This document shows, in pieces, positions 4,701-24,098 of a DNA stretch of 64,000 nucleotides. Within the stretch, counting starts at the first letter, position 1, and each line of letters begins with the position of its first letter. Source of the DNA: a virus (taxonomy: Duplodnaviria > Heunggongvirae > Uroviricota > Caudoviricetes); IMG/VR virus record IMGVR_UViG_2913147268_000005; one strand, 5' to 3'. The notes under the pieces were generated by a model. That model saw only the letters and a list, made by a program, of their open reading frames with translations. It searched no databases and was not told the origin of the DNA. The position numbers and the translations under genes are program-made.

Positions 4701-5334
4701 CCGTGCATTTTTGGTAATATCCGTCAGCGTCAGCGCATTCAGCCCCAGTGTCAGACTGTCTTTTATGACCTGGAATGCCGGGCCAGCCACTCCATTCAGT
4801 TTCGGAGTAACCGTGGCACTGCCGGCGGTGAACACCAGCTCCAGCGTCTGCCAGTCGTTACTGTAATTCCCGAACTCGCCCAACTTTGTGTTTCCTGCTT
4901 TCTTGTGATGCATCAGATTCAGTTTGCCGTCTGTGGTCTGGGTGAAGAACGACATCAGGAACGGGTTACCAGTCCCGGTCATCGCCACGACGTCAGGTAA
5001 CGCTACATCGGTATACAGATAAATTCCCAGACCGAACTGATTGTTGGTCAGTGCGCCTGACAGTCGAAACTTACAGCTCAGTCTGCCACCCCGTGTCAGC
5101 AGGGAGACTGCGTCATCCACCGGGCGCGTCAGGGACCAGGCTTTATTGCTCTGCTTGGTGATCTTAAATACACCATCTGACAACTGAATTCCGCCATTCT
5201 TAATGCTCCAGCCCTGCGCAGCAGCATCTCCGGCTGTCGGCAACAGGGAGATTGTGCGTACGGATGCATCTTCAGACGGCCCCGATGGCGTGTCGCCGCC
5301 GGGCGAGGGTTTGATTTCCGGTGCCTTACCACTA
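4677..5334 (-). pseudogene. nanS: nanS-p 3' fragment (C-terminal domain), inverted relative to the 5' fragment
   Basis: Minus-strand ORF begins SGKAPEIKPSPGGDTPSGP (same motif that ends the 22243 copy) and matches the 41309-41950 copy. Confidence 0.7.
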
Positions 5335-5388
5335 GTCATCGGGCATTATCTGAACATAAAACACTATCAATAAGTTGGAGTCATTACC
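5335..5388 (-). mobile_element. IS1 terminal stub (54 bp)
   Basis: Reverse complement reads GGTAATGACTCCAACTTATTGATAGTGTTTTATGTTCAGATAATGCCCGATGAC, the IS1 terminus as recalled; no further IS1 sequence. Confidence 0.8.
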
Positions 5389-5393
5389 CAAAA

Positions 5394-5804
5394 ATGCACG
5401 CAAAAGAAGAAGGTATCATCAGAGCACTGAAAGAAATTTCAAAGACAGAAAACGAAGTAGCGAAAAAAGCCATAGCAAATAATCATATGGACGTCGCAAC
5501 CCACACACTGATAGTCGCAAGAGTCACGGCAGAAGCAGCCGAAATTATCGCAAAACAGGATGCTGAACTGGCGGTTCTCAGAACACAACCAGTCACCGGA
5601 CTGGATTTGTCTAACACCGGACGCCTTATTTACACAATTGGCTCGGAGCTACAGCGATACACCATTATCGCCGGGTTACAGGATAAATACCTGATCACTC
5701 CTCACCCCATAAGGGAATCAGAAATTCTGACAAATCTCCGCCTGATAGAGCGCTCTCAAGTCGCATTCATTGATGACGCACAGTGCACCGTATTTAACGC
5801 ATAG
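5394..5804 (+). CDS. hypothetical protein, possibly 5'-truncated by the IS1 stub
   Basis: 136-aa ORF starting 3 nt after the IS1 end; frame stays open upstream through the stub. Confidence 0.4.
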   Translation: MHAKEEGIIRALKEISKTENEVAKKAIANNHMDVATHTLIVARVTAEAAEIIAKQDAELAVLRTQPVTGLDLSNTGRLIYTIGSELQRYTIIAGLQDKYLITPHPIRESEILTNLRLIERSQVAFIDDAQCTVFNA

Positions 5805-5827
5805 AGTTACTGGACAAAGGGGGCGCA

Positions 5828-6031
5828 ATGGCAATTAAGCATTTTCCCGTCGTTCGCTTTACCTCCAGAGGGCGCGAATACGAGGTCGACGAACGCCTGA
5901 TTACCACTATCGACAAACATCGTTCGGAAAAGGATGCACACCACATCTACCTCACTGACGGCACTTACTTCTGCGCCACTAATGTGGCGCGGGTAAACCT
6001 TATCCGACAGGTACAGGAGCCACGCAGATGA
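5828..6031 (+). CDS. hypothetical small early protein
   Basis: 67-aa ORF; stop overlaps the next start. Confidence 0.4.
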   Translation: MAIKHFPVVRFTSRGREYEVDERLITTIDKHRSEKDAHHIYLTDGTYFCATNVARVNLIRQVQEPRR

Positions 6032-7587: not shown

Positions 7588-10410
7588 ATGACGGCAGAGT
7601 ACCTCAGGGACTGGCAACAACCGCGCCACGCAGTGGGGCGTGAAGGAACGGGGATCCCCGCTCCTGAATCCGCGCTTTCCTCCTGGCTGGATGCCTACCG
7701 GGCAGAGAACGAGCGCCGCCAGGAAATGGCTGATGCGGCGTTCTCAGCCACGCCGCTGGGCAACCTGATTAATAAAAGCCTGGACGCACAGGAAAAACAG
7801 GACAAAACCATCACACTGGCAGGAGACGCCAGAAAACAGGCACGTGGCGCGGTGGATGAAGCCATGGCCTCGCTGCGCCTGCTGCCGTCCTATCTGCGCG
7901 ATCCGCTTATTCGCCACCTCTCCTTCCTGCGCAAAAAACAGGAAGCCGATCGCCGGAAAGGCAAAAAGAGCTGGCAGGCGGAACGCTATGCACGCGGAAC
8001 CCTGCGCAAAATATTCGAACGTCTGGATAGCACTGACGGACGCTGGCTGACACCGGGTTATCGCTCCCTTGCCGGACGCGAACGCCTGGACGATTTGCTT
8101 TACCTGCCGCAGCTCAACAAACACCAGATACAGACGCTGGCCACCATGACGGCGGCGATGTTCAGCAGCACCTTCGAAAAACTCTGCGATGGCTTTGGCG
8201 CGACCGATGGCGAGCTGACCATGGATGTAACCCTGAAGGCGTATCAGATGCTGGCCCGCATGGCGTTACACCTGCACGCCATGCCTCCACATTATGACGC
8301 ACTGACAACAGACAAAGACCGGAGGAACGAACCGGACACGGAGCTGCTGCCGGGCGCAATCCTTCGCCTGACCTGTGCGGAATGGTGGAAACGCAAACTG
8401 TGGCTGTTACGTTGCGAGTGGAGAGAAGAACAACTCCGCGCCGCCTGTCTGGTTTCCAGAAAAACATCACCCTATCTGAGCCAGGACGCGTTAAGCGAGT
8501 TTCGCGCACAGCGCGAGAAAACACGCGATTTCCTGAAAAGTTTCATGCTGGAAAATGAAGACGGGTTCACGATTGATCTCGAGACAGTGTATTACGCGGG
8601 AGTAAGTAACCCGGTTCACCGTAAGGCAGAAATGATGGCCACCATGAAGGGACTGGAACTTCTGGCCGAAGCCCGTGGCGACAAAGCGGTGTTTCTGACT
8701 GTCACCTGCCCGTCAAAATACCACGCCACAACGGAGAACGGTCATCCGAATCCCAAATGGAACGGGGCCACAATGCGCGACTCCAGCGATTACCTGGTTA
8801 ACACGTTTTTTGCGGCGGTCCGCAAAAAACTGAACCGCGACGGCCTGCGCTGGTATGGCATCCGCACGGTGGAGCCTCATCATGACGGCACCGTGCACTG
8901 GCATATGATGGTCTTTGCACATCCGGAAGAAATCGACACCATTGTGTCCCATACCCGCGATATTGCCATTCAGGAAGACCGCCACGAGCTGGGCAATGAT
9001 ATTACTCCGCGCTTTAAGGTGGAGTATGTCGACGGCTCAAAAGGCACGCCAACCAGCTACATCGCCACCTACATCGGAAAGAACCTGGACAGCCGCGCCG
9101 TGGATGGCATCGACCCGAAAACGGGCAAGCCACGCGTGGACCACGAAACCGGAAAATCAATGGCCGAGAGCGTGGAGCGCGCCATCGGCTGGGCGCGCCT
9201 TCACCGGGTCCGTCAGTTCCAGTTCTTTGGCATCCCCTCCCGTCAGGTGTGGCGTGAACTGCGCCGCCTTGCCAGCCAGATGGCACGCAATCCGGAAGGC
9301 CCGCAACGGCTGAAAGATGATGCAATGGATGCGGTACTCGCTGCCGCCGATGCCGGGTGTTTTGCCACCTACATTGAAAAACAGGGTGGCGTGCTTGTTC
9401 CACGCAAGGACTACCTGATTCGCACCGCCTACGACCTCGCAGATGAGCTGAACGATTACGGCGAACAGAGCGTACAGATTTACGGGATCTGGTCACCACT
9501 CATCGGGGAATCCTCCCGTGTGTGCACGCATCCGGATAACTGGAAGCTGGTAAGACGTAAACCGGAAGCGGAAGACAGCGCCCGCGAAAATGGTTTTGAC
9601 CTTCAGGGCGGCCCTGCCGCCCCTTGGACTCGTGGCAATAACTGTCCCCGTGTACAGGAAACGGACAACAACGGGACAGAACAGCCGGAAGAACGGCCAG
9701 CACCGTGGCCGCAGCTCCCTGACGGCGTTGAAGTGAACGAATGGATGCGCTCACTGAAACGACACGAACGCCGGGCGCTGATGCGTTCGCTTCGTGACAA
9801 ACAGGCAAAAAACAGCAGCGATGAAATGCAGAGCTGGACACAGAGCCGCAAACAGCAGCGGCCTTTGCCTGATAACCACGAATTACTCGCTAAAGAATGG
9901 CGGGAGTCTGCTGAATCTCTCGGCCTGCATATCGGTGAACAACAGATGCAGCACCTGTTACGGGGCGGCAGTCTGTACGTTGACGGCAGCATCATTGCAC
10001 CGCAGGGATTTGAAATTGTACGCAAACCGGATACCCGCCCGGACAGCCGAATCACGCAGCTCTGGCAGCGCCTGAGCCGTAATCATGGCGTAAGCAGCAC
10101 GGAGATCCGCCATAACCCGGTCGCCAGCTATCTGGCACAGCTGGGGGCATCAGACCCTGAAGCCGCCGCACGCCTGGCATCCACACTTCAGCAGGGCCAG
10201 AACACCATGAAAACACCCGTTACCGTGCTTTCTGACATGCTGCGCGCCATCCGCGACGCAGAGCACGCACAGAGAATCAGTGAAACCACTGAACGCGCCA
10301 GCCGCAAAGCAGACCTGCTGCGGGGTGGCCTGACCAGTGGAAACAAAAAACAGACAGAAACGGGACTTACGAATCCCGTAAATGAGCAAAAAACGCGCAG
10401 CGATATATGA
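7588..10410 (+). CDS. P2 gpA-family rolling-circle replication initiation endonuclease
   Basis: 940-aa ORF with HUH-type motif GTVHWHMMVF and P2 A-like central region; position before the A-to-Q hotspot. Confidence 0.8.
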   Translation: MTAEYLRDWQQPRHAVGREGTGIPAPESALSSWLDAYRAENERRQEMADAAFSATPLGNLINKSLDAQEKQDKTITLAGDARKQARGAVDEAMASLRLLPSYLRDPLIRHLSFLRKKQEADRRKGKKSWQAERYARGTLRKIFERLDSTDGRWLTPGYRSLAGRERLDDLLYLPQLNKHQIQTLATMTAAMFSSTFEKLCDGFGATDGELTMDVTLKAYQMLARMALHLHAMPPHYDALTTDKDRRNEPDTELLPGAILRLTCAEWWKRKLWLLRCEWREEQLRAACLVSRKTSPYLSQDALSEFRAQREKTRDFLKSFMLENEDGFTIDLETVYYAGVSNPVHRKAEMMATMKGLELLAEARGDKAVFLTVTCPSKYHATTENGHPNPKWNGATMRDSSDYLVNTFFAAVRKKLNRDGLRWYGIRTVEPHHDGTVHWHMMVFAHPEEIDTIVSHTRDIAIQEDRHELGNDITPRFKVEYVDGSKGTPTSYIATYIGKNLDSRAVDGIDPKTGKPRVDHETGKSMAESVERAIGWARLHRVRQFQFFGIPSRQVWRELRRLASQMARNPEGPQRLKDDAMDAVLAAADAGCFATYIEKQGGVLVPRKDYLIRTAYDLADELNDYGEQSVQIYGIWSPLIGESSRVCTHPDNWKLVRRKPEAEDSARENGFDLQGGPAAPWTRGNNCPRVQETDNNGTEQPEERPAPWPQLPDGVEVNEWMRSLKRHERRALMRSLRDKQAKNSSDEMQSWTQSRKQQRPLPDNHELLAKEWRESAESLGLHIGEQQMQHLLRGGSLYVDGSIIAPQGFEIVRKPDTRPDSRITQLWQRLSRNHGVSSTEIRHNPVASYLAQLGASDPEAAARLASTLQQGQNTMKTPVTVLSDMLRAIRDAEHAQRISETTERASRKADLLRGGLTSGNKKQTETGLTNPVNEQKTRSDI

Positions 10411-10486: not shown

Positions 10487-11446
10487 ATGAAAATTTGTAT
10501 CGACGACGGCTCCACCAACATCAAGCTGGCATGGACTGAGAATGGCGAACGCCGCAACGCCATCAGCCCGAACAGCTTCAAGTCGGAATGGTCTGCGCCG
10601 TTCGGTGGCATGCAGCCCGCGAACTACATGCTTGATGGCGTGCGCTATGGTTTTGATCCGGTTAGCGATCGCTTTGTCCAGACGACCGACACGCAATACC
10701 AGTACAGCGATGTGAATGTAATCGCCATTCATCACGCGCTGGTCAAATCAGGCATCACGCCACAGGAGGTGGATGTGGTTGTCACCCTGCCACTGAGCGA
10801 GTATTTCGACACAAACGCACAGCCGGACATGGCCAACATCAACCGCAAAAAAGCGAACGTTATGCGCCCGGTGGAATACCAGAACGGCGAAGCATTCACT
10901 ATCCGTAACGTGCGGGTTATGCCTGAATCCATTCCGGCTGGCTTTAAAGCACTGGCTGACATGAGTCCGTTTGAATCCCTGCTGATTGTGGATTTAGGCG
11001 GAACCACGCTGGATGTGGCAAAGGTTCAAGGGCAACTGGCAGGTATCAGCCAGGTGTTTTGCGATCCACACGTAGGCGTTTCCCTGATGGCCGATGCCGT
11101 ACTGTCGGTGATGGCCACTAACGGTATGCGCACCAGTCACCACATCGCCAATACCATTATCGAACATCGCCATGATGAAGCCTGGCTGCGCCAGCACATC
11201 CACAATGACGCGCATTACGCCAGCCTGATGGCGGTTATTCGTGAAAAGGAAGAAACACTGAAACAACGCGTGATCCGCGCGCTGGCGGTTTTTTCGGGTT
11301 ACGGGCGGGTGATGGTTGTCGGTGGAGGGGCGGAGATTGTGGCACCCGCTATCCGCGAAGTCTGCGGAGTTAATGCGACTTTCATCGCGGACGGGGTGCC
11401 ACAGTTTGCTCTGGTTAATGGGCTGTACGCAATGGACAAGGAGTAA
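10487..11446 (+). CDS. parM: actin-like plasmid segregation ATPase ParM/StbA
   Basis: N-terminus MKICIDDGSTNIKLAW...ISPNSFK and overall match to R1 ParM as recalled. Confidence 0.85.
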   Translation: MKICIDDGSTNIKLAWTENGERRNAISPNSFKSEWSAPFGGMQPANYMLDGVRYGFDPVSDRFVQTTDTQYQYSDVNVIAIHHALVKSGITPQEVDVVVTLPLSEYFDTNAQPDMANINRKKANVMRPVEYQNGEAFTIRNVRVMPESIPAGFKALADMSPFESLLIVDLGGTTLDVAKVQGQLAGISQVFCDPHVGVSLMADAVLSVMATNGMRTSHHIANTIIEHRHDEAWLRQHIHNDAHYASLMAVIREKEETLKQRVIRALAVFSGYGRVMVVGGGAEIVAPAIREVCGVNATFIADGVPQFALVNGLYAMDKE

Positions 11447-11450
11447 ACCA

Positions 11451-11765
11451 ATGACGACACCAACCAGACGGATAAGTTTCTATCTGAAGCCCGCCGCCGT
11501 CAAGAGTGAACAGGAGGCGTGCAATTACCTCGATAGCCTGCCAGCCTCCGAACGCAGCCGCGCGCAACGCGCGGCCTTTCTGGCTGGGCTAGCGCTCATA
11601 AAGCGCAACCCAGCATTTGCCTACTGGATGGCCGAATGGCCAGAGGACAACCTCCCCTTCAATACCGTTAGCATCAAGGAAACATACCAGGATAATCAGC
11701 CTAGCGGAGTTGAATGCAATTTTTATAAAATAAAAAAGAATATTCAGACCTTATTCCCAGAATAA
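11451..11765 (+). CDS. parR: ParR-like centromere-binding adaptor
   Basis: ISFYLKPAAVKSEQEACNYLDSLPASERSRAQRAAFLAGLAL parallels R1 ParR IAFKLNPDV...DSIPQGERSRLNRAALTAGLAL. Confidence 0.7.
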   Translation: MTTPTRRISFYLKPAAVKSEQEACNYLDSLPASERSRAQRAAFLAGLALIKRNPAFAYWMAEWPEDNLPFNTVSIKETYQDNQPSGVECNFYKIKKNIQTLFPE

Positions 11766-11848
11766 TCTGATAATTGTATGTGAACTAATAAAATACAGAC
11801 CAACACATCATTCTGGCACCCTTGCTAACAGGGTGCCAATGTTTCAAA

Positions 11849-12691
11849 TCATGATGAAATTGCCGAAGTTTTTTTATCGTGCTGAAGTACCGCAAATGCC
11901 ATTAAAACCTCAAGAGAATAGCGGCGATAATACTTAACAAAACCATAATAAAATACTCGGGATGCAGCAATACAAAACAAGAGAAGAAAACAAAAAGGTA
12001 ACAGTCTGATATTTATATCTATTAAAAAGGATAGAAGGAGCAGGAACATAAGCAACCAGACTGAAGCGAGAAAAACAAATGTAATGTTTCTACAAAAACC
12101 ATACAAAGCAACATAGTTTTGCATTTTCACCTGATGATTTTTAGAATGTTCATACACATAATGATAAGCAAGGCGAAAAAGATCGCCCCTCAAGCCCTTA
12201 CGTCGATATAGCGTAGATACAGAAAAAACATTTATATAACCATCTCGTATTTGCGGCCAAAAGACTTTAATAAGTATAGAATGCAGTGTGGTTTTATGAT
12301 GTTCTGCTTTATCAAAAGCTGATACAGGAAATAAAAAAACTCCACGAATAAAATTAACTATACTGAACTTAGTATTATGTCGTTTTATTTTCAGGGAGCT
12401 TCTTTTAGAAAACAGATAAATTGAAGGATACCCAAGTTTACTGTTCATGTATTTTTCAATTAAACAGGATGATAGAATAGATATGAAGTGACCTGAAATA
12501 TATGATAGAACGATTAATACCACATATATAAATACACTTATTATTTCTTTATATTTCAGGATATGGTTAAGAATACCTTCTATATAAACAGGGTTAATTT
12601 CAATAGAAAACAAAAAAAGGATAAACAGGAATAACCCACCTGGAATTAGATAGCCCAAAAAGTCATAAAATGAAAACGGATTCTGTGTCAC
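11849..12691 (-). CDS. hypothetical polytopic membrane protein (hotspot cargo gene B)
   Basis: 280-aa ORF, GTG start preceded by AGGGGGAA SD; at least 5 hydrophobic TM-like segments; AT-rich. Confidence 0.7.
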   Translation of the reverse strand: MTQNPFSFYDFLGYLIPGGLFLFILFLFSIEINPVYIEGILNHILKYKEIISVFIYVVLIVLSYISGHFISILSSCLIEKYMNSKLGYPSIYLFSKRSSLKIKRHNTKFSIVNFIRGVFLFPVSAFDKAEHHKTTLHSILIKVFWPQIRDGYINVFSVSTLYRRKGLRGDLFRLAYHYVYEHSKNHQVKMQNYVALYGFCRNITFVFLASVWLLMFLLLLSFLIDINIRLLPFCFLLLFCIAASRVFYYGFVKYYRRYSLEVLMAFAVLQHDKKTSAISS

Positions 12692-12730
12692 ACTTCCCCC
12701 TGTGTTACTTGTAAATTAAAGGGTAAAACA

Positions 12731-13228
12731 TTATTTGTTTTTCCGTAAAGGATTAGCTTTCCATCTTCTTACTAACCATTCGAATTCTTGATATGTAGTA
12801 TCCGAATTAATGCTTTCTCTGATTGCTTTAATTAATGGCTCGGCAATATCATATGTCTCTACAACTGTTGTGTAAGATGTTCTTTTTATCATTTTTTCAT
12901 CATAAATACCTTCACGAATACTTACAGCAACTCGCTCGTAAAAATTTAAAATATATTGAAATTTTCGACGCTCGGCCATTTCTTCATCTGTTATTATGCA
13001 ACCATCACAAGGAAAAACATAAGAACGAAATGATTTGCCTGAACGATGCACTTGTTTCAGGGTATGCAATGACTCTATATATTGCATATCTTGCCGACTC
13101 TCAAAAAGAAAGTTGGCCGTTTGAGTTTTTTTTGCGGTACGCACATTGTAGATAATGGTTCCAATGGCAACCAAAACGCCAAGCAGAACAATAGCATTGC
13201 TGATGATTTGTAGTGTTATTGGGTTCAT
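12731..13228 (-). CDS. hypothetical membrane-anchored protein (hotspot cargo gene A)
   Basis: 165-aa ORF; N-terminal TM helix ITLQIISNAIVLLGVLVAIGTIIY then soluble domain; 39 bp upstream of gene B; AT-rich. Confidence 0.7.
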   Translation of the reverse strand: MNPITLQIISNAIVLLGVLVAIGTIIYNVRTAKKTQTANFLFESRQDMQYIESLHTLKQVHRSGKSFRSYVFPCDGCIITDEEMAERRKFQYILNFYERVAVSIREGIYDEKMIKRTSYTTVVETYDIAEPLIKAIRESINSDTTYQEFEWLVRRWKANPLRKNK

Positions 13229-13245
13229 CCTATTTCATCCATAAA

Positions 13246-13273
13246 AAAGGCGGGGAGCAAATCCCCGCCTCAT
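13246..13273 (-). terminator. rho-independent terminator just upstream of gene A
   Basis: Minus-strand hairpin AGGCGGGGA-tttgc-TCCCCGCCT followed by TTTTTT; preceded by an 11-codon ORF MKKMYDEFDGF. Confidence 0.55.
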
Positions 13274-13425
13274 TAGAGGTCAACGTAGCTTAGAAACCAT
13301 CAAATTCATCATACATTTTTTTCATATCAACCCCCTCATAGAAATCATAACCACGTTTTGTGGTTTTTGTGACGTATAAACTACATCAAAGGCAAGCCAC
13401 GGTCAAATATATAGGCATGCTTACC

Positions 13426-13452
13426 TGCACAAAAGTGCACAAATTTGCACAA
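13426..13452. repeat. three direct TGCACAA repeats at ~10-11 bp spacing (candidate operator)
   Basis: TGCACAAAAGTGCACAAATTTGCACAA; a fourth TGCACAAAAAAA near 13520. Confidence 0.5.
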
Positions 13453-13823
13453 TTTTTTTGAACGACTTTTTACCCTTCCGGCCCGCATGGCGGCTGGATC
13501 CGTCAAGGATCCGTGCGTGCACAAAAAAACGCGCTTTTTCTGCGCGCAGGTGACGGGGGAACAGCCCGCGTTTCAGGGGGTAAATAGCATTCCCTGAACG
13601 ATGTCGCAGAGACACAACAGAATGGCCATATTTCTCACGCTGAGCATGAAAAAGGCGTGAGGGCTTTTGATTTGATGGGGTGAAAGGTAAGGCCGTCAAA
13701 ATCGCACTGAGGCAGCGAGAACATGCAGTCAACGCGGTGGAATTGCGTAAGAGTCTGACCGTCGATGGTGGCGATAAACTGGAAGGCGTCGTGAAATTAT
13801 CTGATTGATACAGGAGCTGGAGA

Positions 13824-13852
13824 GCCGGGGCATAAATTTTTTATGCCCCGGC
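13824..13852. terminator. perfect palindrome, probable bidirectional terminator
   Basis: GCCGGGGCATAAA-TTT-TTTATGCCCCGGC. Confidence 0.5.
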
Positions 13853-13951
13853 GAAGCAGCAGACAAGCGAAGCGCGTCAGCGATACGGCACCTTGCCGAC
13901 CATACTTCATAAGTGCAAAATACGAGCAAAGAAATCAATGGAGGCTGTCTT

Positions 13952-14476
13952 ATGGTCATTAATTACAAGCAGTTAAGAGAAAAACGGGAGCAGGTAAAGG
14001 AGAGCTTTCGCCGCAATGAAGATCTGACCCCGCTTGTACGCCTTGCCCAGGGCATTGTTGATGCTTATGAAATCTCGCTGGAGCTGCCATCACAGACCTG
14101 GACAGATAGCGACGGTAATCGCCAGCATTACGTTTCATGCGGACTGGAAGCAGCCGAAGGATTTCGCAGAATGCCTTTATCCCAGATCCCTGCCGCTACC
14201 CCCAAAGCACGGGGCAGCAATGATGAGCGAAAACTGACTTTTAGTATTGAAACGGTGGTTGACGACACACCTGGCGAAGTCGCGTTCGTGCACACTCCTG
14301 TTTCGATCGCAATGTATAACGATGAAATACAGGTTCGCGTTAATAATAATATCGTGCCACTTAAAGAAGGTAATTCACCCTACACCACCGTTTGTGAAGC
14401 CATTCAATATTACGTTCTCTCTGAAATTGATAATCTCAAGCCTGACGGCACCCAGAAAATGGTTCAACTCTGGTAA
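13952..14476 (+). CDS. hypothetical protein (hotspot cargo)
   Basis: 174-aa ORF from ATG with GGAGG SD 7 nt upstream; no homology recognised. Confidence 0.55.
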   Translation: MVINYKQLREKREQVKESFRRNEDLTPLVRLAQGIVDAYEISLELPSQTWTDSDGNRQHYVSCGLEAAEGFRRMPLSQIPAATPKARGSNDERKLTFSIETVVDDTPGEVAFVHTPVSIAMYNDEIQVRVNNNIVPLKEGNSPYTTVCEAIQYYVLSEIDNLKPDGTQKMVQLW

Positions 14477-14477
14477 A

Positions 14478-14512
14478 AAGGACAGCCCCATCACGGGGCT
14501 GTTTTTTCATCA
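14478..14512. terminator. bidirectional terminator between convergent genes
   Basis: CAGCCCCATCACGGGGCTG hairpin flanked by A-run and T-run. Confidence 0.6.
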
Positions 14513-15537
14513 AGAAGAGCATAAGAGTTAAAACGGATCACCTCTTCGCCAAGCCAGTCATTGATGTGCTTCATAGCCTCCATAACGGGCATCAGCTCGT
14601 TAATTGCGTAAACCCGCGCTGCCTTCTCCACATCGCCAAACGCACTTTTTTCGCCCGGCATCGCCCCCATCAGTTGCGGCGGAACGCGGTGCGCAGCCAG
14701 CACATCATCACGGGATGCCGCCTTAACATTCATGAATTCATCTTTTGCGGTGATCTGCTGGAACGGCAAAATTTGCACCCCCTCTTTGCCCCCGTTGGGC
14801 GCATGAATGAGCACGTTTTTAAACGCACCACCACCACGTGCCCCCTGTAGCGTTTCTTTCAGGGAGTCCATGCTTTCGCGGTTTACCTGCGCTGCACCGA
14901 TGTAGATGATGCACCCGGCGTGGGATCCGTTGTCGTAGTACAGTTTTCTGAACATGTCCGCCGAATGAGAAAGGCTGGCCGAGAGTAATGCGCCAAGATA
15001 TTCCGGCATGCCGTAGATTTCCTGGTTAATATCCGGATTCATCAGGTGGCACACTTTGCCAGGACGAAACTGAAACGCGTCCTTGCCATCCTGCACATAC
15101 CACCATGATTCAAGATCGCTTCCGCGTCGCATGTATTTCGCCAGGGCGTGCCGTAATTTAAGCGGTTCGCCGAGCATATTGCTTCGAAGCTCAAGGAATG
15201 CGTTACCGAACACAAACCAGTCCAGCGCCAGCGCCGAGAAATCCTGCCGGGAAAGCAGCGGGTGCGGGATGTAGCAACCGAGTAATACATTGCGCTTAAA
15301 GTAAAGCGCAGACTGATGCCAGGACGTTTGCCGGGCTGCTCTTGCCAGACCGTACCAGTCCACCGGGGTTTCATACCACCGCCCGTTATCAGCACAGTAC
15401 ATATTGTCCAGCAGGTCATGCCCGGTCAGGCGATAAGGACCATCAAATGTGAATGCACTGAGCGATGATTCTTTCCTGAGCGCATCAGCGAGATCAATGC
15501 GTGAACTCATGCGCACTTTTTTATTTTTTCTGCTCAT
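14491..15537 (-). CDS. P2 gpQ-like portal protein
   Basis: 348-aa ORF; P2-type Q-P (minus) / O-N-M-L (plus) divergent arrangement. Confidence 0.75.
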   Translation of the reverse strand: MSRKNKKVRMSSRIDLADALRKESSLSAFTFDGPYRLTGHDLLDNMYCADNGRWYETPVDWYGLARAARQTSWHQSALYFKRNVLLGCYIPHPLLSRQDFSALALDWFVFGNAFLELRSNMLGEPLKLRHALAKYMRRGSDLESWWYVQDGKDAFQFRPGKVCHLMNPDINQEIYGMPEYLGALLSASLSHSADMFRKLYYDNGSHAGCIIYIGAAQVNRESMDSLKETLQGARGGGAFKNVLIHAPNGGKEGVQILPFQQITAKDEFMNVKAASRDDVLAAHRVPPQLMGAMPGEKSAFGDVEKAARVYAINELMPVMEAMKHINDWLGEEVIRFNSYALLDEKTAP

Positions 15538-22104: not shown

Positions 22105-22246
22105 CCCACCCACATGGGGAAACCTCGGAATATGGGGCGACCGCCTTCTGGATGCACTGGAAACCTGTAACGCGGATAAACGGGCCATTGCTGAACTGGA
22201 TAAGAGAATAGCCGAACTGACACACCAGACGGGAGTAACACAATGA
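21935..22246 (+). CDS. o-spanin lipoprotein (Rz1/LysC-like)
   Basis: Lipobox LTLVLLTGC and proline-rich body; embedded in the i-spanin gene in another frame. Confidence 0.65.
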   Translation: MNSYATILQKMNAPTLCLTLVLLTGCAGTQNAPGPAPSVRLIPQTLTMPVTPPPFPDPPTWGNLGIWGDRLLDALETCNADKRAIAELDKRIAELTHQTGVTQ

Positions 22247-23487
22247 CCAGTAAGAACTTTGCACTGATTACAGCCATGACACAGGCTGAACTGACTCAAA
22301 AGGTGAATGAACATCTTGCGAAAGGGTGGCATCTTCAGGGGGAGACGCGGGTTGCCTACGAACCCGGCACCCCGTGGTATCTAATGCAGGCAATGGTGGC
22401 CGATGGCACTACAGACATCTCACCTGATTCCCCCCAGCACGGCAGCGTGCCGGAGTGGTATTACGTGGTGGTACTTGCTGGTCAATCCAATGCCATGTCA
22501 TATGGTGAGGGAATGCCGCTGCCGGATTCTTACGATGCGCCCCACCCACGCATTAAGCAACTGGCCCGTCGCAACACAGTGACTCCCGGTGGTAAAGCAT
22601 GCGCATTTAACGACATCATTCCGGCAGACCACTGCCTGCATGATGTTCAGGATATGAGCGCACTGAATCACCCGAATGCAGACCTGAGCAAAGGGCAGTA
22701 TGGCTGTGTCGGACAGGGCTTGCATATTGCCAAACGCCTGTTGCCTTACATTCCACAGAATGCCGGGATTTTACTGGTTCCATGCTGTCGTGGTGGTTCG
22801 GCATTCACCCAGGGCGCGGAGGGGACATTCAGCGAGTCCACAGGAGCCAGTCAGGATTCGGCTCGCTGGGGTGTGGGTAAACCTTTATATCAGGACCTGA
22901 TTTTGCGCACGAAGGCCGCATTGCAGAAAAACCCAAAAAACATGCTGCTGGCCGTATGCTGGATGCAGGGCGAATTTGACATGAGCGCCGCTACGTACTC
23001 ACAGCAACCTCCGCTGTTTACGGCCATGCTGAAACAGTTTCGTGCGGACATTACCGAGTTTAACACGCAGTGTCATGGAGGCAGAGCGGCAAGTGTGCCA
23101 TGGATTTGTGGTGACACGACGTATTACTGGAAAAACACCTACGGCACGCAGTACGACACCATTTACGGGGCGTACAAAAACAGGGAGAGCGACAACGTTT
23201 TCTTTGTGCCGTTCCTGACCGATGGTAGTGGCAACAATACCTCCACCAACGCACCAACGGAAGATCCGGATGCTGCAAGTGAGGGATATTACGGTTCGGC
23301 ATCCCGAACGAACAAAAACTGGGTATCATCAAATCGCCAGACGCATTTCAGCTCATGGGCGCGTCGTGGCATTATTCCCGATCGTATGGCAACCGCTATT
23401 CTGAACGTAGCCGGTCGCACCTTAGCCTTCATCAGTGGTAAGGCACCGGAAATCAAACCCTCGCCCGGCGGCGACACGCCATCGGGG
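22243..23487 (+). CDS. nanS: nanS-p prophage sialate O-acetylesterase (DUF1737 + SASA domain), C-terminal domain missing
   Basis: GQSNAM SGNH motif; start overlaps the o-spanin stop (ATGA); homology ends at KAPEIKPSPGGDTPSGP; ORF then reads through to 23706 as junk. Confidence 0.8.
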
Positions 23488-23757
23488 CCCGGTGACCAGA
23501 CCGAACAGATTGGACACCGTCAGCGACGGTCTGGCACTGCTGCCCTTCCCGCTCATCTCAAAACCGCTGCCGTCAATCGGGTATGCCTGATATTGCCGCC
23601 CCTGCCAGGTGACCGGCTCCCCTTTTTCATTCAGCTCATTACAGAAAAAATACCGCTCACCGCCCTGTACCGTCAGGTCGATTTCCCAGAGTACCACCCG
23701 CGGTGACTGCTCTGACTTAACCGACTCGTTCAGACTTTCTTCGCGAATATCCTGCAT
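23488..23757 (-). pseudogene. lambda gpL minor tail protein, N-terminal ~90 codons only
   Basis: MQDIREESLNESVKSEQSPRVVLWEIDLTVQGGERYFFCNELNEKGEPVTWQGRQYQ matches the lambda L N-terminus; stops at the nanS junction. Confidence 0.8.
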
Positions 23758-24098
23758 CAGTTCACCACCTGCTCAATCGTACAACTGAAATCACTGTGCC
23801 TGGCGTTATCTGTGACGCTCCACTCCCGGCACACCACCCTCACCGTCAGGTTATGTTTCGGCGGTCGCCACAAAAAGGCACGGTAACCACCATGCCACGA
23901 TAAAAATTCATCCAGCCAGCGCCGGGTTGGTTCATCCGTCACCCGGAACACCGCCTGAAACGTCTTCAGTCTGGCATTAAGTCCCGTCGGTCGGCGCTGT
24001 TCATAACCGTCACCAAACCGAACCCTCACCACCGACGGTTTCTCACTCACCTGCATCCCTTCACGCGGGACCAGATGCAGCGTTTTTATCTCAGCCAC
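23757..24098 (-). CDS. lambda gpM-like minor tail protein
   Basis: 113-aa ORF between H and L. Confidence 0.7.
   Translation of the reverse strand: MAEIKTLHLVPREGMQVSEKPSVVRVRFGDGYEQRRPTGLNARLKTFQAVFRVTDEPTRRWLDEFLSWHGGYRAFLWRPPKHNLTVRVVCREWSVTDNARHSDFSCTIEQVVN

Follow-up and report, generated by a model that had tools for sequence, protein, structure and literature searches.

Two separate membrane-protein modules, a leader-headed DUF4760 gene and a four-helix membrane-protein gene, in the gpA-gpQ hotspot of a P88-like prophage

Introduction

In P2-like phages the interval from replication gene A to portal gene Q (gpA-gpQ) was identified as a defence hotspot by Rousset et al. 2022; they curated 169 systems in it and obtained protection with three of eight tested unknowns (PMC9122126). 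Some of these systems have transmembrane (TM) effectors, and some of the cargo, such as partition systems and toxins, is non-defensive (PMC9122126). That new anti-phage genes can be found in this hotspot is established. Here we analyse its cargo in a stretch of 64,000 nucleotides (IMG/VR record IMGVR_UViG_2913147268_000005; hereafter the window, meaning the whole stretch), which carries a P88-like prophage (Xuanwuvirus, P2 family). The cargo includes two minus-strand membrane-protein genes, designated A and B. On their distribution they are two independent modules stacked at one site, and A is preceded by a conserved leader peptide gene and an intrinsic terminator.

The closest described systems differ for each part of this cassette. 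Occupants of the same slot include old, tin, DUF4238, 3HP, DprA-PRTase and 2TM-1TM-TIR of phage AC1. The cassette is likewise short, AT-rich and swappable, and some of these systems also have TM proteins, but none shows sequence similarity to A or B in PADLOC. Superinfection exclusion by lactococcal Sie2009, P22 SieA and SieB or HK97 gp15 relies on small prophage inner-membrane proteins that act alone and whose genes sit in variable, int-proximal or hotspot positions. A and B are also small prophage membrane proteins encoded in such slots, but have no homology to any of them. In trpL-type attenuators, TnaC, SpeFL and drug-sensing leaders, a short open reading frame (ORF) led by a Shine-Dalgarno (SD) sequence lies upstream of a gene-gating terminator. 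The leader of A has, like them, a motif conserved right before its stop codon, while it lacks a demonstrated alternative antiterminator helix and regulatory codon runs.

At the protein level, A is a member of the family DUF4760 (PHROG 2284), and its predicted fold recalls the EP domain (PF18117) of the plant proteins EDS1, PAD4 and SAG101, with which it shares an all-helical structure, a richness in conserved basic residues and an immune context. The EP domain has about 230 residues and A only 165 in all; A shows no detectable sequence similarity to it (7-10% identity), carries a TM anchor in place of the N-terminal lipase-like domain and is encoded singly, without a TIR partner. B resembles Csx27 in having four TM helices, but carries an additional insert of about 115 residues, putatively cytoplasmic, and has no cas13b or CRISPR context, its neighbours being phage replication, partition and portal genes or, elsewhere, xis-int and yfdR-like genes. 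Csx27 is the four-TM accessory protein of type VI-B1 CRISPR-Cas; down-regulation of Cas13b is ascribed to it in PMC11662929, which cites Makarova et al. 2019 for its proposed role as a single-stranded DNA channel.

Distribution of genes A and B

Gene A (12731-13228, minus strand, 165 codons, ATG start; RefSeq WP_001068329.1) and gene B (11849-12691, minus strand, 280 codons, GTG start after the SD sequence AGGGGGAA; RefSeq WP_000193205.1) are 39 bp apart, and the RefSeq coding-sequence calls match both ORFs exactly. With no terminator in between, they probably share a transcript here. They lie between the replication and ParM partition genes on one side and portal gene Q on the other. Their GC content (0.349 for A, 0.317 for B) is far below that of the flanking gpA (0.577), ParM (0.548), portal (0.529) and terminase (0.541) genes. 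A preliminary description of this DNA, made from the letters alone, had given these coordinates, the B start with its SD and the same placement, and had estimated GC at roughly 30% against 50%; ORF map, RefSeq annotation and computed values (0.317-0.349 against 0.53-0.58) all agree with it.

The description was also right in viewing the cassette as AT-rich acquired cargo. Of 5426 complete E. coli genomes, 289 have the full cassette (about 5%, many of them ST131) and 1385 have its flanks, and unrelated small genes occupy the A/B position in P88 and PhiR44_2. The cassette is thus real hotspot cargo, located between gene A of replication and gene Q and variable among relatives. The same region, 1.9 kb long, matches phages vB_EcoM-705R2 and PV468777 at 100% identity. 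As to its novelty, the qualifier "undescribed" stands only in part: the exact locus accounts for about 160 entries in Table S5 of Rousset et al. 2022, and neither the A or B accession nor "DUF4760" is found among the tested systems in their table (PMC9122126).

The same description had proposed that A and B form a two-gene defence system, and this part did not hold. We collected 113 DUF4760 loci, from 22 species-representative genomes, 33 metagenomes and 58 IMG/VR records. B was found only beside copies of A that are at least 98.8% identical, that is, in the same E. coli cassette, and it was absent within 4-6 kb from all of the roughly 100 loci whose A homolog is at most 90% identical. Reciprocally, DUF4760 was found within 5 kb at none of 67 IMG/VR phage loci carrying B homologs (34-47% identity), and no neighbour of any kind is conserved at other A or B loci. 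A single variant pair (A 88%, B 87% identical) keeps the arrangement with identical spacing, on a contig of 2 kb in which B is followed downstream by a third, convergent gene. Co-occurrence of the two genes across divergent genomes is thus not observed.

Each gene has its own range of sites. Without B, DUF4760 is found at P2-like A-Q hotspots in Xenorhabdus, Kluyvera, Dryocola and others; in Klebsiella it belongs to a podovirus-like prophage, and in Enterobacter and Rahnella it is a lone insertion between housekeeping genes. Homologs of B are found elsewhere as the single variable gene directly upstream of xis-int in lambdoid prophages or, alternatively, between a yfdR-like gene and a gene of the PyocinActivator family. 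Judged by this distribution, A and B are independent modules that are stacked here, since each occurs elsewhere without the other. The DUF4760 module is the more interesting one because of its deeply conserved micro-ORF and terminator and its EP-like predicted fold.

Leader peptide and terminator upstream of gene A

An unannotated mini-ORF of 11 codons (13325-13290, minus strand) lies 62 nt upstream of the A start codon and encodes MKKMYDEFDGF followed by a stop. Its SD (GAGGGGG) is strong whereas that of A is weak. The mini-ORF stop is followed after 18 nt by an intrinsic terminator (13271-13241, minus strand; GAGGCGGGGA-TTTGC-TCCCCGCCTT and T6, about -19 kcal/mol), the A start being situated 18 nt past the stem and 12 nt past the T-run. 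The region therefore has the layout of an attenuator, with an SD-led short ORF and then an intrinsic terminator directly upstream of the gene. The probable promoter of the module, recognized at the level of consensus, is at 13378-13406 on the minus strand (TTGACC, 17-nt spacer, TAGTTT); upstream of DUF4760 in other loci of the collection (L007, L008, L010, L011, L012 and L020), TTGACT boxes stand in register with its TTGAC box. The scan gave a second sigma-70-like match at 13373-13344 on the minus strand (GTCACA-18-TATGAT). No room is left for a promoter of DUF4760's own, so that A, and B behind it, would be made only by read-through of the terminator.

This leader is a nearly constant companion of the family. 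Defined as a short ORF (8-16 codons) that has an SD and the ending acidic-acidic-aromatic-acidic-Gly/Trp-hydrophobic-stop, it was found in 103 of 107 evaluable DUF4760 loci. Among the four others, two share a stop-codon variant, MKKAFDEFDGFYIMK, one carries an insertion sequence (IS) and one is a near miss (MKDVIGGF). The mini-ORF is retained where the protein homologs have only 33-50% identity, with the endings DEYEGV, DEFEGF, DEFEWV, EEFDGF, DDYEGF and DV[VI]DG[FL], and the hairpins of these distant loci have stems quite different in sequence. The micro-ORF is conserved more deeply than DUF4760 itself, and would represent a new leader or arrest peptide, or a micropeptide partner. A hairpin with T-run, strictly defined, follows 93 of the 103 leaders, at a median distance of 18 nt from the stop. 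The unit of leader and DUF4760 is found in P2-like hotspots, in the podovirus-like Klebsiella prophage and in the lone Enterobacter and Rahnella insertions.

Two further observations concern what is conserved. Among 56 unique leaders, changes in the six core codons (D, E, F, D, G, F) are nearly all synonymous (GAT35/GAC21, GAA30/GAG26, TTT39/TTC11, GAC34/GAT22, GGC25/GGT19/GGA6/GGG2 and TTC43/TTT12), which points to selection acting on the peptide sequence; these leaders were picked by motif, so that non-synonymous variants are under-sampled, a bias that the relaxed search (103/107) addresses. In the hairpin alignment A3, 86.5% of the cells are paired as against at most 67% in slid controls, and covariation is modest, with nine cells changed on both sides (0 of 500 shuffles). 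The association is also specific in the opposite direction: a DNA pattern combining the hairpin and the reverse-translated DEFDGF-stop retrieved 38 IMG/VR contigs, and DUF4760 follows in all 35 that are evaluable.

The leader does not correspond to a catalogued element. Rfam (E<=1, positions 11500-14600) gave no known riboswitch or leader, only two sub-threshold chance matches (caiA and SorX), and a literature search for "DEFDGF" returned only unrelated material. In full-text searches DUF4760 is named only in passing, in an unrelated paper, and neither the leader with its terminator nor the EP-like fold is described. A second micro-ORF (ATGGATGAA...) that overlaps the A start was considered and dropped, its frame and stop being unconserved among loci.

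Several variations were noticed around this leader in other genomes. In several genomes, of ST131 and others (H17-H21), IS421 separates the mini-ORF from the start of DUF4760, for example at about 3030-4400 of L207 (E. coli ST131, NZ_OX637964) and in L074 and L243, at a site equivalent to about 13240-13300 of the window. In the IMG/VR copy L243 the mini-ORF and the DUF4760 start are about 1.4 kb apart. An insertion at this site would cut A and B off from the native promoter and leader. Many other loci (L008, L010, L012, L013, L020) have an inverted repeat ATTACC-N4-5-GGTAAT about 170-200 nt upstream of the DUF4760 start, which overlaps the spacer and -10 of the conserved TTGAC promoter and is operator-like; the window copy (13378-13406) has no palindrome. 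Two more minus-strand terminator-like hairpins are located at 13349-13365 (AACCACAAAACGTGGTT) and 13529-13547 (GCGCGCAGAAAAAGCGCGT followed by T7), in the unannotated 680-bp spacer that extends from the A leader to an ORF of 187 codons.

Family and predicted fold of protein A

The preliminary description could place neither protein in any family, which proved wrong for both. A matches Pfam DUF4760 (PF15956) over its full length, with 119.3 bits (gathering score 25 bits) and E 1.8e-34, residues 12-156 lying on positions 2-141 of the profile (span recorded as 141/141 profile positions); it also corresponds to phrog_2284. All 37 aligned homologs match PF15956 too, and a total of 111 homologs, 40-99% identical, were found across Enterobacterales. 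NCBIfam had no match for A, for B or for the adjoining 187-residue ORF.

Hydropathy and the AlphaFold2 model (pLDDT 92.6) agree with the architecture first proposed for A, namely one N-terminal TM helix (about residues 6-28) and a soluble domain of about 130 residues, which is all-helical. This domain would face the cytoplasm, because of the R30/K33/K34 cluster. The Arg and Lys residues R45, R68, K115 and R137 are invariant in the family.

The EP domains of EDS1, PAD4 and SAG101 were the only strong and specific fold match of the model, by two methods, with Foldseek E values of 0.2-1; the predicted model shares their all-helical fold. At the sequence level, PF18117 gave no match at E<=10 to the 37 DUF4760 members, a search in which HMMER filters may hide very weak ones, and the DUF4760 profile found no EDS1-family chain among PDB sequences. 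The EP fold has so far been reported only in the EDS1 family; the similarity, if real, bears on the origin of this domain. Two other matches of A were set aside: a PDB sequence match to a nopaline-binding protein (E 1.5) is attributed to chance, and the PADLOC match to PDC-S35 (E 0.014) was judged not significant.

Family of protein B

B belongs to PHROG 12528 (phrog_12528, E 1e-71) and to no Pfam or NCBIfam family. It was first described as having at least five TM segments, a number reduced here to four by hydropathy and the AlphaFold model. The hydrophobic helices lie at about 8-41 and 43-78, with two more within 198-252, and the model has helices at 8-28, 50-86, 184-224 and 230-279. The stretch 110-126 is below the hydropathy threshold and forms a short broken helix in the model. 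TM2 and TM3 are connected by a loop of about 115 residues, presumably cytoplasmic.

The family is large, with 676 cluster representatives at E<=1e-3, and has polar motifs that are strongly conserved (QNPFSxYDFLGYxIPG, GHxxSxxSSxxxE, GYPS, YHYxxExxxxHxxKxQNYVALYGFxR and KFYRRxxLE). The invariant polar residues are D10, H68, E79, H177, E181, H186, K189, N192, R201, K253 and E261. At the lambdoid site the slot upstream of xis-int is fixed in dozens of prophages (IMG/VR contigs L133-L199, gene at about 5001-5860), and two sets of upstream genes accompany it, either yfdP/yfdQ/yfdR-like or encoding a ParB-like protein. The context of distant representatives is uninformative, their contigs being of 1-3 kb only.

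A PADLOC check of the locus, which the preliminary description had suggested, gave no significant defence match apart from a weak one of B to Csx27. With PADLOC-DB v2, no defence model was significant for A or B, the listed values being the PDC-S35 one already mentioned and, for B, Csx27 at 1.1e-5 and PprPIWI at 0.056. Among 31 members of the B family, 25 match the Csx27 model (best 1.3e-8) and nine the related tm_4 model; the Csx27 model has no curated cut-off and TM composition may inflate these scores. From these weak sequence matches B is probably a distant member of the Csx27 superfamily. A match of B to Nlp36 and one of a single family member out of the 31 to SieB (E 0.0013, sub-threshold) were judged not significant, and a PDB sequence match of the family profile to growth hormone (E 0.5) is due to chance.

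Possible functions of the two modules

The reading that we favour, with a probability of about 0.4, is that two independently mobile single-gene accessory modules are stacked in the gpA-gpQ hotspot, that A is gated by its leader and terminator, and that both proteins act to exclude or abort superinfecting phages. The first module would be self-contained in about 0.75 kb, made of promoter, mini-ORF MKKMYDEFDGF, intrinsic terminator and DUF4760 gene. The mini-ORF would be strongly translated, its C-terminal peptide motif most likely acting in cis as a leader or arrest peptide that makes termination depend on the state of the translation machinery. The membrane-tethered EP-like helical protein would thereby be kept low until a perturbation, for example phage takeover, permits read-through. 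The second module, the four-TM protein B, normally solo beside xis-int, would act alone at the inner membrane. Both would benefit the lysogen, superinfecting phages being excluded or aborted at the membrane. An anti-phage function is plausible for A and B because of hotspot position and architecture.

Several points weigh against this scheme. No convincing conserved antiterminator was found, RNAalifold on the leader alignment recovering the terminator alone. A CCTC box able to pair with the SD or with the terminator base is present in many leaders and not in all; the same is true of SD/anti-SD pairing, for which the duplex test is weak (mean z -1.1). With a median of 18 nt between stop and hairpin, a terminating ribosome would be too far to mask the stem directly. 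Given the 87-88% variant of the pair, A and B may yet cooperate functionally within this lineage. The Rahnella and Enterobacter copies are syntenic and chromosomal with no phage genes nearby, and would fit a stress or envelope role equally well. Finally, the non-defensive portion of P2 hotspot cargo mentioned above (PMC9122126) is also to be reckoned with.

The leader could be a cis-acting leader or arrest peptide, as in the favoured scheme, or a micropeptide partner made in excess. In the latter case, which we consider unlikely while placing it first among the alternatives, the true two-component system would consist of the micropeptide and DUF4760, the acidic DEFDGF-COOH binding the basic helical domain in the manner of an antitoxin. 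When a phage shuts off host expression, the short-lived peptide would be lost and the membrane protein would act; the terminator would serve to set a high ratio of peptide to protein. Conservation of the peptide itself down to 33% protein identity speaks for it, and so do the strictly exclusive association with DUF4760 (35/35), the strong SD of the mini-ORF facing the weak one of A, and the invariant R45, R68, K115 and R137. Moreover, the peptide variants track the protein clades (DEFDGF; DE[FY]EG[FV] with DEFEWV; EEFDGF; DV[VI]DG[FL]). Toxin-antitoxin operons have an upstream, more highly expressed gene separate from the effector, a layout to which a leader upstream of A is similar. On the other hand, we know of no precedent for a cytoplasm-made antitoxin or ligand of 8-13 residues, and a motif just before the stop is equally typical of cis-acting arrest peptides.

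It is rather unlikely that A and B have nothing to do with phages and are lysogenic-conversion or envelope/stress genes, B being a membrane enzyme or channel and A stress-induced. This would account for DUF4760 and its leader standing alone between housekeeping genes, in synteny, in Rahnella (after astE) and Enterobacter (after a Trp/Tyr permease gene), with no mobile element near. The invariant polar residues of B (H-x3-E-x4-H, D10, E79, K253, E261) suggest catalysis or ion binding, and int-proximal slots of lambdoid prophages, where B is found, often hold conversion genes. The non-defensive share of the hotspot cargo fits as well. However, most occurrences are in variable regions of temperate phages, and neither protein is similar to known families of envelope-modifying enzymes. 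A lysis function was rejected, the genes being outside the holin/endolysin cassette and A being found also alone in chromosomes.

Clearly unlikely, on present evidence, is the composite view in which DUF4760 would be a bacterial or phage counterpart of the EP domain, tethered to the inner membrane and paired with the universally co-inherited acidic micropeptide of 8-13 residues (as translation-sensing arrest peptide or as ligand/antitoxin) rather than with B. Were this so, DUF4760 and its peptide would make up a minimal module of a new kind, for immunity or stress, and would connect prokaryotes with a core component of TIR signalling in plants.

We regard as very unlikely a single, obligate two-component system for defence or abortive infection, in which A would be a small anchored sensor and B a polytopic effector. 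Co-orientation, the 39-bp gap with probable co-transcription, persistence of the pair at identical spacing in the 87-88% variant and the presence in this hotspot of systems with TM effectors (PMC9122126) would agree with it. Against it stand the roughly 100 loci with divergent A and no B, the 67 B-homolog loci with no A, and the want of a conserved neighbour for either gene elsewhere; the variant is in the same phage backbone, where linkage may reflect plain vertical descent.

Highly improbable, finally, is a role of DUF4760 as a prokaryotic or phage relative of the EP domain serving as a membrane-tethered receptor, or as a decoy or sponge, for immune signals derived from ADP-ribose or other nucleotides, since the identity is only 7-10% and Foldseek E 0.2-1 despite the specific fold match, no PF18117 or PDB sequence match supports kinship, all-helical bundles can converge, A stands solo with no signal-producing enzyme beside it, and the plant ligand site lies between two EP domains joined by lipase-like domains that A lacks.

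Neighbouring genes and other features

The hotspot is bounded by the gpA replication endonuclease gene (7588-10410) on one side and by portal gene Q (14491-15537) on the far side of the A/B cassette. Inside it, a partition pair on the plus strand (10487-11765) encodes ParM and a StbB-like protein (Plasmid_stab_B), an arrangement in which Rousset et al. see a possible means for some P2-like prophages to be maintained as plasmids. In its longest form the ORF of the StbB-like gene starts from TTG (11316) and overlaps parM, the RefSeq start being at 11451. Between this gene and the convergent B lies a perfect 9-bp hairpin, TGGCACCCT-TGCTAAC-AGGGTGCCA (11814-11838), 11 nt past the B stop. Neither strand has a clear T-run there; the hairpin may serve both genes as a transcription stop.

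A third hotspot gene, the adjoining ORF mentioned above (13913-14476, plus strand; RefSeq start 13952; 174-187 residues depending on the start; phrog_5091, WP_000236495), separates the A module from the portal gene and has no match in Pfam, PADLOC or NCBIfam. Its recurrence is not tied to A and B: PhiR44_2 has it at the same place, and Trabulsiella (L027) beside gpA.

Further away, between the lysis and tail genes of the prophage, a DUF6645 protein of 625 residues is encoded at 30544-32421 of locus L001 (about 22243-24120 of the window); this insert is unusually large for a P2-type genome and may be additional cargo. In an E. coli chromosome with identical sequence, dmsA adjoins the prophage integration site.

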